A DNA stretch of 46,538 nucleotides from IMG/VR virus record IMGVR_UViG_2879754190_000005. The stretch is one strand, 5' to 3'. Numbering within the stretch: position 1 is the stretch's first letter; each line of letters opens with the position of its first letter. The notes below the pieces were generated by a model. It was not told the DNA's origin, did not search any database, and saw nothing but the letters and a program-made list of their open reading frames with translations. This DNA is from a virus. Taxonomy: Duplodnaviria > Heunggongvirae > Uroviricota > Caudoviricetes. Positions 13,927 to 14,275 of the stretch are shown piece by piece. The position numbers were made by a program, and so were the translations under genes.

Positions 13927-13955
13927 TTGCAGATGTGATGACATATGGTTATTAT
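13927..13955 (+). promoter_or_regulatory. Sigma70 promoter candidate for the tRNA array
   Basis: TTGCAG - 17 nt - TATTAT ending 9 nt before the first tRNA. Confidence 0.4.
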
Positions 13956-13964
13956 TCTGCCTCC

Positions 13965-14041
13965 GGCCCTTTAGCTCAGTTGGTCAGAGCGAGCGACTCA
14001 TAATCGCCAGGTCGCTGGTTCAAGTCCAGCAAGGGCCACCA
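13965..14041 (+). tRNA. tRNA with CAU anticodon (Ile2-type or Met)
   Basis: Cloverleaf with 7-bp acceptor stem GGCCCTT/AAGGGCC, anticodon loop CTCATAA, T-loop TTCAAGT, encoded CCA; resembles E. coli ileX from memory. Confidence 0.8.
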
Positions 14042-14042
14042 A

Positions 14043-14119
14043 CCACCACTAGCTCATCCGGATAGAGCATCAACCTTCTAAGTTGACGGTGCGAGGTTCG
14101 AGTCCTCGGTGGTGGGCCA
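14043..14119 (+). tRNA. tRNA-Arg (UCU anticodon)
   Basis: Acceptor CCACCAC/GTGGTGG, anticodon loop CTTCTAA, T-loop TTCGAGT, CCA end. Confidence 0.8.
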
Positions 14120-14121
14120 GC

Positions 14122-14197
14122 GCCGACTTAGCTCAGCAGGCAGAGCAACTGACTTGTAATCAGTAGGTCACCAGTTCGATTCCGGTAGTCGGCACCA
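14122..14197 (+). tRNA. tRNA-Thr-like (UGU anticodon)
   Basis: Acceptor GCCGACT/AGTCGGC, anticodon loop CTTGTAA, T-loop TTCGATT (one A-C mismatch in T stem), CCA end. Confidence 0.65.
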
Positions 14198-14200
14198 TAT

Positions 14201-14275
14201 GCGGGCATCGTATAATGGCTATTACCTCAGCCTTCCAAGCTGATGATGCGGGTTCGATTCCCGCTGCCCGCTCCA
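14201..14275 (+). tRNA. tRNA-Gly (UCC anticodon), glyT-like
   Basis: GCGGGCATCGTATAATGGCTATTACCTCAGCCTTCCAAGCTGATGATGCGGGTTCGATTCCCGCTGCCCGCTCCA; clean cloverleaf, anticodon loop CTTCCAA. Confidence 0.85.

Follow-up and report, generated by a model that had tools for sequence, protein, structure and literature searches.

The window analysed here is a stretch of 46,538 nucleotides of tailed-phage DNA (Caudoviricetes; IMG/VR record IMGVR_UViG_2879754190_000005), and the subject of this report is a compact array of tRNA genes within it, together with the integrase-bearing island that begins directly behind the array. ARAGORN finds 4 tRNA genes in the whole 46.5 kb, all of them in this array and on the + strand: tRNA-Ile2 (CAU, reading AUA) at 13965-14041, tRNA-Arg (UCU, reading AGA, and AGG by wobble) at 14043-14119, tRNA-Thr (UGU, reading ACA) at 14122-14197 and tRNA-Gly (UCC, reading GGA) at 14201-14275. 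They are separated by spacers of 1, 2 and 3 nt, in gene order. The Rfam model RF00005 matches all four genes independently at 56-70 bits (70.5 for tRNA-Ile2, 56.4 for tRNA-Arg and 69.8 for tRNA-Thr), where the gathering score is 29; the E-values range from 1e-9 to 1e-13. The CCA end is encoded in 4/4 genes. The four cloverleaves, with the anticodons and the 1-3-nt spacing proposed in an initial annotation of this DNA, are borne out by both programs.

The gene with the CAU anticodon matches K-12 ileY at 71/77 positions and ileX at 69/77. Its anticodon stem-loop is the same as that of ileY, and its homologues carry the annotation tRNA-Ile, both from the Prokaryotic Genome Annotation Pipeline (PGAP) and in the record of phage Nil2. 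In view of the ileY match and the identical anticodon stem-loop, the label 'tRNA-Met' assigned by ARAGORN was dropped; judged by these matches, the gene is a tRNA-Ile2 that would decode AUA and not AUG, with an anticodon that is presumably lysidine-modified. Thus, in the decoding set given initially, AUA, AGA, ACA and GGA stand, and AUG has to be removed. Comparison with the other housekeeping genes, which had been recommended at the same time, places the tRNA-Gly gene at full identity with K-12 glyT (75/75) and the tRNA-Thr gene at 74/76 to thrU, with both differences in the D-loop. The tRNA-Arg gene is far from the host argU (58/79 aligned columns between two 77-nt genes) and from argO (47/77). 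It is nearer to argN(UCG) of Nil2 (64/77) and to the phage 'Lys(UUU)' variants found at the equivalent position (65-66/77). Its acceptor stem opens with C1-G72, and its scaffold is of the argN type of Shiga toxin (Stx) phages. Position 3:70 of this scaffold shows a compensatory A-T to G-C change among phage variants, which argues for functional tRNAs.

Upstream of the array lies the putative sigma-70-type promoter that the initial annotation had pointed out, TTGCAG (13927-13932) and TATTAT (13950-13955) with a 17-nt spacer, together spanning 13927-13955 on the + strand and ending 9 nt before the first tRNA. A promoter scan reports the overlapping reading TTTGCA-18-TATTAT (9/12). When 150-320 nt upstream of the first tRNA were aligned from seven phage contexts, the TTG of the -35 element and the TTATTAT at the -10 element were invariant in 7/7, and spacing and distance to the tRNA were fixed, in an alignment otherwise only 48% identical per column. 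Because these motifs are invariant across such diverged contexts, the site is more than a chance match, and the comparison gives good evidence for a dedicated sigma-70 promoter that would drive the cassette.

About 50 nt upstream of the -35 element, RNA folding shows an intrinsic-terminator hairpin, AACCCGC-TTTAT-GCGGGTT followed by a T run (13853-13880, +). Its folding energy is -22.3 kcal/mol (z = -6.4), 0/200 shuffles fold as well, and it is kept in 5/7 phage contexts. A simple terminator scan listed no terminator upstream of the array, and it probably missed this hairpin because the T run overlaps the extended stem. The Nil2 record annotates tR' between q and the tRNAs; by its position, the hairpin of the window may likewise be a late-operon tR'-type terminator that is overridden by Q. 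With both signals, an intact phage would be expected to transcribe the cassette constitutively and, in addition, by late read-through.

Occurrence of the cassette and codon usage

From 1218 to 14275 the window is collinear with the intact prophage of E. coli VL40 at 88-99.6% identity, and the gaps are insertion sequence (IS) elements only. In VL40 the same four tRNAs stand between a Q-like antiterminator gene (DUF1133) plus an ORF6N gene on one side and the holin/RrrD lysis genes on the other, and the terminase and portal genes come after the lysis genes, downstream of the cassette. E. coli CFSAN029787 has a 100% identical cassette in another lambdoid prophage, where the flanking genes are an unrelated Q and a holin; this genome has copies of the cassette in two different prophages. 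Phage PhiR47_1, PPompW prophages and strain 720632 carry variants, each time directly behind Q and, in PhiR47_1 and strain 720632, between Q and holin. In Nil2, the gene order is q, tR', tRNA-Ile, tRNA-Arg, tRNA-Arg, stx2A. At a coverage of at least 80%, the cassette is present in 603/5,426 complete E. coli genomes. By these occurrences, in several lambdoid prophages as well as in sequenced phages, the cassette qualifies as a common and mobile module of the lambdoid Q-to-lysis region, and the earlier suggestion that the array is phage cargo holds.

In the window itself, only the upstream side of this arrangement survives, with the Q-like gene, the terminator hairpin and the tRNAs; the downstream lysis side has been replaced by the island and a deletion, and both sides are found in the collinear relatives and in Nil2. 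The Q-like gene (9753-10322, +; DUF1133 / Phage_antitermQ) matches Pfam positions 1-149 of 176 and has lost its 3' end to an IS at ~10323; collinearity with VL40 breaks at 10319 and resumes at 11566. Downstream, the lysis-to-tail genes are deleted, the island is interrupted by an IS, and an IS1 at ~18553 is followed by more IS debris. Since the Q-like gene is truncated and the late genes are deleted, only the cassette's own promoter can act here.

The nearest known system is the ileZ-argN-argO cluster of 933W/Nil2-type Stx phages (AJ413274.1), on which our literature search gave no paper. The position is alike, downstream of Q/tR' and upstream of late genes, as are the first gene, a tRNA-Ile2 (CAU), and the argN scaffold of the second; the two also share the -35/-10 elements and a first spacer of 1 nt. 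The Ile-Arg pair has ~88-90% nucleotide identity to Nil2, phi330 and PPompW, and the Thr and Gly genes come from outside the Stx cluster. Differences are found in the second anticodon, which is UCU in the window and not UCG, in the host-like tRNA-Thr(UGU) and tRNA-Gly(UCC) that take the place of argO, and in the downstream region, where the window has no stx genes and the inserted island has replaced the late genes.

Across the phages, scaffolds are kept and anticodons are switched. Position 2 carries UCG (argN of Nil2), UCU (window) or UUU; position 3 carries UGU, or UUU through a single G35U on the thrU scaffold (strain 720632); and position 4 carries UCC or UAC. The anticodon-variant genes lie at L017 9092-9168, L018 3095-3171, L019 3095-3170, L020 2595-2671, L042 1657-1732 and L002 6447-6518 of the loci collected for comparison. 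The appearance of UUU at two positions may reflect selection for an extra or a nuclease-resistant tRNA-Lys. The fourth gene of CFSAN029787 (L002 6447-6518), annotated as tRNA-Val(UAC), is glyT-like with C35A and an adjacent A-to-G change; it lacks CCA and one nucleotide of the 3' acceptor strand, and the same variant is annotated in six other genomes. This UAC gene is probably a decaying gene and not a true Val tRNA. In the tRNA-Thr(UGU) of VL40 (L001 9423-9498), the 3' strand of the anticodon stem reads TCATC where TCAGT is expected, so pairing is broken; the copy in the window is canonical.

Plunkett et al. reportedly reasoned in 1999 that the tRNAs of Stx phages serve the rare AUA and AGA codons. 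For the present cassette, the codon usage of 27 coding sequences (CDS) of the intact VL40 prophage was compared with that of 18 chromosomal CDS flanking two E. coli loci, both of them small samples. All four cognate codons are commoner in the prophage, whether counted per 1000 codons or as a fraction of synonymous codons; the AGA fraction is 0.13 in the prophage versus 0.03 in the host, and that of ATA 0.13-0.26 versus 0.07. When the 59 synonymous codons are ranked by the prophage/host ratio of these fractions, AGA stands 2nd, ATA 3rd, GGA 4th and ACA 6th. The 1st is AGG, which by standard wobble rules a UCU tRNA should read too. By our own arithmetic, four codons named beforehand would all rank among the top six of 59 with a chance of ~3 in 100,000. 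In addition, GC content is nearly equal in the prophage and host sets (0.499 vs 0.511), so the enrichment is more than AT-richness. These ranks support the classical codon-supplementation role, in which the cassette would supply decoders for AUA, AGA (and AGG), ACA and GGA, codons overused by the phage, with a physiological benefit that can be presumed from the usage. The proposal that the anticodon set suits a phage agrees well with this result.

The T7 island and its probable attachment site

Homology to intact E. coli prophages ends at 14275, the last base of tRNA-Gly, and the island starts at 14276. Its left end (TGACCTTTCTTAAAGTACTCC..., 14276-14389, +) is the same sequence that directly follows the glyU tRNA-Gly(CCC) in the E. 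coli genomes 21AR0133 and FT130. Behind it is the gene for a tyrosine integrase of 534 aa (14390-15994, +) with DUF6538 and Phage_integrase domains (Pfam), and then a 121-bp tandem repeat of 3.1 copies (16007-16374, +; Tandem Repeats Finder (TRF) score 694). Each repeat unit holds one perfect T7 class III promoter consensus, the exact 23-mer TAATACGACTCACTATAGGGAGA, at 16083-16105, 16204-16226 and 16323-16345 (+). Three exact 23-mers within 263 nt, the first of them 89 nt past the integrase stop, compare with 0 expected by chance. AT-rich short tandem repeats of the TTAACTTAAAG type follow at 16540-16675 (+; TRF) and are kept in glyU islands. An IS3-family element lies inside the island at 16743-17984 (+); these ends are approximate, taken from transposase domains and from a gap in island homology at 16742-18042. 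The remaining island DNA (17985-18552, +), recognised by BLAST against two glyU-type island loci (L003, L004) and by Pfam, consists of short repeats and a Rha-family gene of which the first 60 codons are left (18370-18552); the Phage_pRha match of this gene covers profile positions 1-31 of 91, and the gene is cut by the IS1.

T7 islands, as Chen & Schneider are said to have described them in 2006, are 4-13 kb long, with an integrase upstream of 2-3 tandem promoters and terminal repeats of 17-24 bp, and were proposed to be satellite phages. The island of the window matches this class in having a tyrosine integrase with tandem T7-group promoters, three of them here, a short way downstream. Size and terminal repeats agree in intact relatives such as the small FT130 element, which measures 4,276 bp between 23-bp direct repeats of the glyU 3' end (TTCGATTCCCTTCGCCCGCTCCA); the window copy is truncated, interrupted by an IS and lacks the right attachment site (attR). 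It also sits on a prophage tRNA-Gly(UCC) and not on the chromosomal glyU(CCC) usual for the family. The name 'T7 islands' is used for the class in PMC2189734, citing Chen & Schneider 2006 (Nucleic Acids Res 34:1133), and a review of E. coli pathogenicity islands cites the 2006 T7-island paper under 'PAI sit' (PMC7545054). Our literature search found no T7-island work beyond the 2006 bioinformatic papers and their citations, and no later experiments; nor did it bring up any report of a satellite or defence island of T7.

Promoter copies number 2 in glyU-resident islands and 2 or 3 in 8 related Shigella-type chromosomes, and islands of other genera carry other T7-group promoters, with T3-like sites in the Proteus and Kluyvera representatives. 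No phage RNA polymerase gene is present in the surviving 14276-18552 of this truncated copy, nor in the FT130 island, for which only the integrase and a KilA-N gene are annotated. A comparison of the island promoter region with sequenced phages gave no extended homology; Salmonella phage Vi06 matched it over promoter-sized stretches only. In its tandem T7 promoters with AT-rich DNA behind them, the island also resembles the primary replication origin of T7. Transcription of the island by T7 RNA polymerase during infection, and perhaps replication that depends on this enzyme, would therefore be a reasonable mechanism. T7 islands are also obvious candidates when satellites of T7-like phages, or defences against such phages, are sought.

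Two further islands of this family were of interest in their own right. In the glyU island of Klebsiella pneumoniae ATCC 13883 (L021 5265-5381), a perfect K11 and a perfect T7 consensus lie within ~100 nt, with two near-K11 sites in addition, so that this island looks wired for more than one T7-group polymerase. In the FT130 island (L004 16813-16981), 13 tandem copies of the 13-bp unit GATGACCATAGGC stand right after the integrase stop in an iteron-like arrangement; 21AR0133 has 3 copies, and the window has a degenerate trace at ~15990-16015.

The normal target of this integrase family can be read from its relatives. The island left end with the integrase (86-94% nucleotide identity, coverage at least 80%) occurs in ~30 complete E. 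coli genomes. In the two of these that were inspected, 21AR0133 and FT130, the island directly follows the actS-glyU tRNA-Gly(CCC), and many more glyU islands were found with a probe from strain EPSSH018. Among 20 representatives of Enterobacterales species that carry relatives of the integrase, 14 have it just after tRNA-Gly(CCC) and 0 next to a UCC gene, which makes glyU the normal target of the family. Two representatives, L033 and L034, whose tRNA sequences are ridden with indels and look like assembly errors, were left out of the att-site inference.

In the window, the last 23 nt of tRNA-Gly (14253-14275, TTCGATTCCCGCTGCCCGCTCCA) are the counterpart of the left attachment site (attL). The glyT-type and glyU-type 3' ends differ at 3/23 positions. 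The window tRNA and the glyU tRNAs each keep their own T-stem, and the only sequence shared at the exchange point is 10 bp, GCCCGCTCCA. An independent case with both att sites is E. coli EPSSH018. Here a prophage cassette of Ile, Lys, Thr and Gly precedes an integrase with 74% identity to that of the window, and several small genes and a phage holin come next. The attL is glyU-type, which turns the tRNA-Gly into a glyT/glyU hybrid, and the displaced glyT-type end (TTCGGCTCCCGCTGCCCGCTCCA) is found as attR 6,356 bp downstream, beside the holin gene. This is the textbook signature of site-specific integration into a prophage tRNA gene, and it gives direct evidence that a glyT copy carried by a prophage can serve a glyU-specific island as its secondary site. 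The early idea that the array serves as an attachment target of the island fits both observations, the start of the island at the base after CCA in the window and the paired attL and attR in EPSSH018.

The direct repeat of the tRNA-Gly 3' end that the idea predicted is present in the relatives FT130 and EPSSH018 and absent from the window. We searched the window with the 25-mer (at most 3 mismatches), the 17-mer core (at most 2 mismatches) and all 10-/11-mers of the tRNA-Gly 3' end and obtained chance hits only, which fall within ORF6N (13429), within a sit gene (24675) and in the T-loop of tRNA-Thr. When the DNA behind tRNA-Gly or attR in four relatives was compared with the window by BLAST, only IS copies matched, and no lysis or late-gene DNA turned up. 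Because the far end of the island and attR are deleted, the attR test cannot succeed here. Junctions of this kind are rare in the 5,426 E. coli genomes, with the EPSSH018-type junction in 1 and the window junction in 0. Exact matches to the integrase protein of the window occur in >2,200 data blocks, and the eight complete chromosomes (4.6-4.7 Mb) that we examined have the same layout as the window. Over the 633 bp that run from the terminator region as far as the start codon of the integrase, 6/8 are identical and the other two differ by one single-nucleotide polymorphism each.

Elements with an attB in a tRNA gene, such as DLP12 at K-12 argU, share with the present case an integrase beside the tRNA 3' end and a boundary at or inside the tRNA gene. 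DLP12 begins within argU, with intD adjacent; in the window, the target tRNA is itself cargo of a prophage, which gives nested elements, and the integrase is co-directional with the tRNA, unlike the situation at DLP12-type sites.

Competing explanations

On the whole of this evidence, we consider it likely that the locus is a dead lambdoid prophage which carries a mobile, codon-supplying tRNA cassette and in which a T7 island has integrated at the glyT-identical tRNA-Gly. The cassette would normally reside between the Q antiterminator/late terminator and the holin/lysis genes. Its own sigma-70 promoter would allow transcription in the lysogen, and in an intact phage Q-antiterminated read-through of late transcription would be added; the polycistronic transcript would presumably be cleaved by RNase P, with trimming at the spacers of 1-3 nt. 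Before the prophage decayed, the T7 island would have integrated site-specifically at the 3' end of the prophage tRNA-Gly, exploiting a sequence common to the 3' ends of both types of tRNA-Gly gene, glyU and glyT.

Several points weigh against this reading. With attR absent from the window, integration at this site is deduced from the junction and from relatives, and so is the precise crossover point. The tRNA-Gly of the window is pure glyT-type, in contrast to the hybrid attL of EPSSH018; an exchange within the last 10 bp, an attP arm of glyT type, or later repair from the chromosomal glyT are possibilities that would account for it. The codon samples are small (27 vs 18 CDS), and part of the enrichment is a general phage codon bias. 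Promoter function and tRNA expression rest on sequence, the phage that carries the cassette is dead in this chromosome, and identity across 8 chromosomes may reflect clonal descent only.

Other origins of the locus fit less well. The tRNA-Gly is identical to glyT and the tRNA-Thr nearly so to thrU, as a native chromosomal tRNA operon would have it; decoding capacity is also like that of the housekeeping loci (thrU-tyrU-glyT-thrT-tufB, ileX/ileY and argU), with close matches for Gly, Thr and Ile. Yet the K-12 locus has the order coaA-thrU-tyrU-glyT-thrT-tufB, with spacers of 8, 116 and 6 nt and no Ile or Arg gene, and the array of the window differs from it in context, order and spacing, with a tRNA-Arg remote from argU. 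Its neighbours are prophage genes, its surroundings are collinear with those in prophages and sequenced phages, and tyrU, thrT and tufB are absent around it, as the initial annotation had recognised for its glyT-like last gene. We regard a native operon as ruled out, with a probability that is practically nil, and by all these comparisons the array is to be read as a phage-borne duplication of host functions and not a native locus. The island might, on the other hand, have reached tRNA-Gly by IS-mediated rearrangement or by homologous recombination with a glyU copy, and not by site-specific integration. Many IS elements, large deletions and the lack of a surviving attR speak for such a course, and so does the absence of island-derived bases in tRNA-Gly, unlike the attL of EPSSH018. 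Rearrangements of the sit island have been attributed to homologous recombination over site-specific mechanisms (PMC7545054). Nevertheless, the junction lies exactly after CCA, is free of IS and has the complete island left end as at glyU; the 10 bp shared there are too short for RecA-dependent exchange and typical of an att core; and EPSSH018 proves that the integrase family can enter a prophage tRNA-Gly. Arrival of the island by rearrangement or homologous recombination is therefore very improbable in our judgement.

The role of the cassette leaves more room for alternatives. It could be an anti-defence device, with spare tRNAs that replace host tRNAs cut by anticodon nucleases during infection. 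In relatives, the scaffolds repeatedly gain UUU, at position 2 in EPSSH018, PhiR47_1 and PPompW and at position 3 in strain 720632. tRNA-Lys(UUU) is a recognised target of anticodon nucleases. The Arg(UCU) gene has moved far away from argU of the host (58/79), and a phage tRNA has been reported to neutralise the PARIS defence (PMC11464382). Against this, the tRNA-Gly equals host glyT and the tRNA-Thr is two D-loop bases off thrU, so that neither could evade a nuclease directed at host tRNAs; the Lys variant is absent from the window copy; and the four anticodons track the codons most enriched in the phage, as codon supplementation and not anti-defence predicts. We find an anti-defence role for the cassette quite improbable. 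It may also be that the cassette is, at this locus, a functionless relic in a decaying prophage, kept intact by recent clonal descent and not by selection. The disruption of Q by an IS, the loss of all late genes and the many IS elements of the region favour this, as do the identity of the 8 chromosomes, which is equal in the non-coding flanks, and the decay of the fourth gene elsewhere, for example in CFSAN029787 (UAC, acceptor-stem deletion, loss of CCA). Three considerations point the other way, none of them decisive. Although IS elements have struck on both sides, the promoter and all four genes with their CCA ends are undamaged; the tRNA-Thr of the window is canonical, unlike the VL40 copy with its anticodon-stem changes; and extra decoders of AGA, AUA, ACA and GGA could aid AT-rich acquired genes such as the ipaH gene of the window, which has 10.5 ATA, 7.0 AGA and 15.8 ACA per 1000 codons, compared with 5.0, 1.3 and 7.8 in the host sample. 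We rate a mere relic as somewhat unlikely, and it is compatible with the origin of the genes as a phage cassette.

Neighbouring features and biological meaning

Beyond the IS debris behind the island, the prophage resumes with the genes for tail-fibre assembly and for the tail fibre, after which come DUF4376, the sitDCBA genes in reverse orientation and part of an integrase gene. The sitDCBA genes (23197-26646, -) lie within 20766-27731, at the other end of this defective prophage, and the integrase fragment is at 27078-27731 (-). In enteroinvasive E. coli (EIEC)-type strains, the sit genes adjoin a prophage tail-fibre gene, and a copy of the cassette is found 23-29 kb away from them. By this arrangement, the 'sit island' appears to be prophage cargo.

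The window also contains two inverted modules like the immI RNA of P1 (c4-a1b1 targets, isrK and C4 antisense RNA), at 11696-11897 (+) and 38344-38532 (-). The first copy, just upstream of the cassette, has the Q-like gene on one side and the ORF6N (antirepressor-type) gene on the other, and the second lies in another prophage remnant, by a Rha/Ash gene, with DicF at 38767-38817 (-). The second remnant also has an ipaH-type effector gene with LRR_TTSS and NEL E3 ligase domains (41106-42821, -), and the CssrB small RNA (sRNA) is beside it at 42951-43133 (+). In the early region of the prophage, a sok antisense RNA (7326-7500, +; Rfam, 118 bits) takes the position that a Hok/Gef gene has in the collinear relatives. 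From the Shigella sRNA families, the ipaH gene and the literature on the sit island, we infer that the eight related chromosomes are those of Shigella flexneri and that the window belongs to a chromosome of this type.

The components found here are all of known kinds, namely a lambdoid late-region tRNA cassette, an att site in a tRNA gene and a T7 island. Modestly new are the make-up of the cassette, with an Arg(UCU) on the argN scaffold joined to host-like Thr and Gly, and the nesting of elements at the Shigella sit locus. A bolder generalisation, which we think unlikely as it stands, is that phage-borne copies of host tRNAs act as extra landing pads, so that a T7 island, presumably a parasite of virulent T7-group phages, rides a lambdoid phage in a three-level nesting, and that cassettes switch anticodons on fixed scaffolds (UCG/UCU/UUU, UGU/UUU, UCC/UAC). 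If this were true, a T7 island between Q and the lysis genes could travel to new hosts with a temperate phage, and anticodon switching would retune what the phage supplies.

Our results can help to explain the Shigella sit locus as a decayed lambdoid prophage whose surviving tRNA cassette would have been the entry point for a second element. At least one step in the building of this locus would then have been site-specific, unlike the recombinational view in PMC7545054. The locus would also be a natural example of how phage-carried tRNA genes may widen the range of attachment sites open to islands that target tRNA genes.

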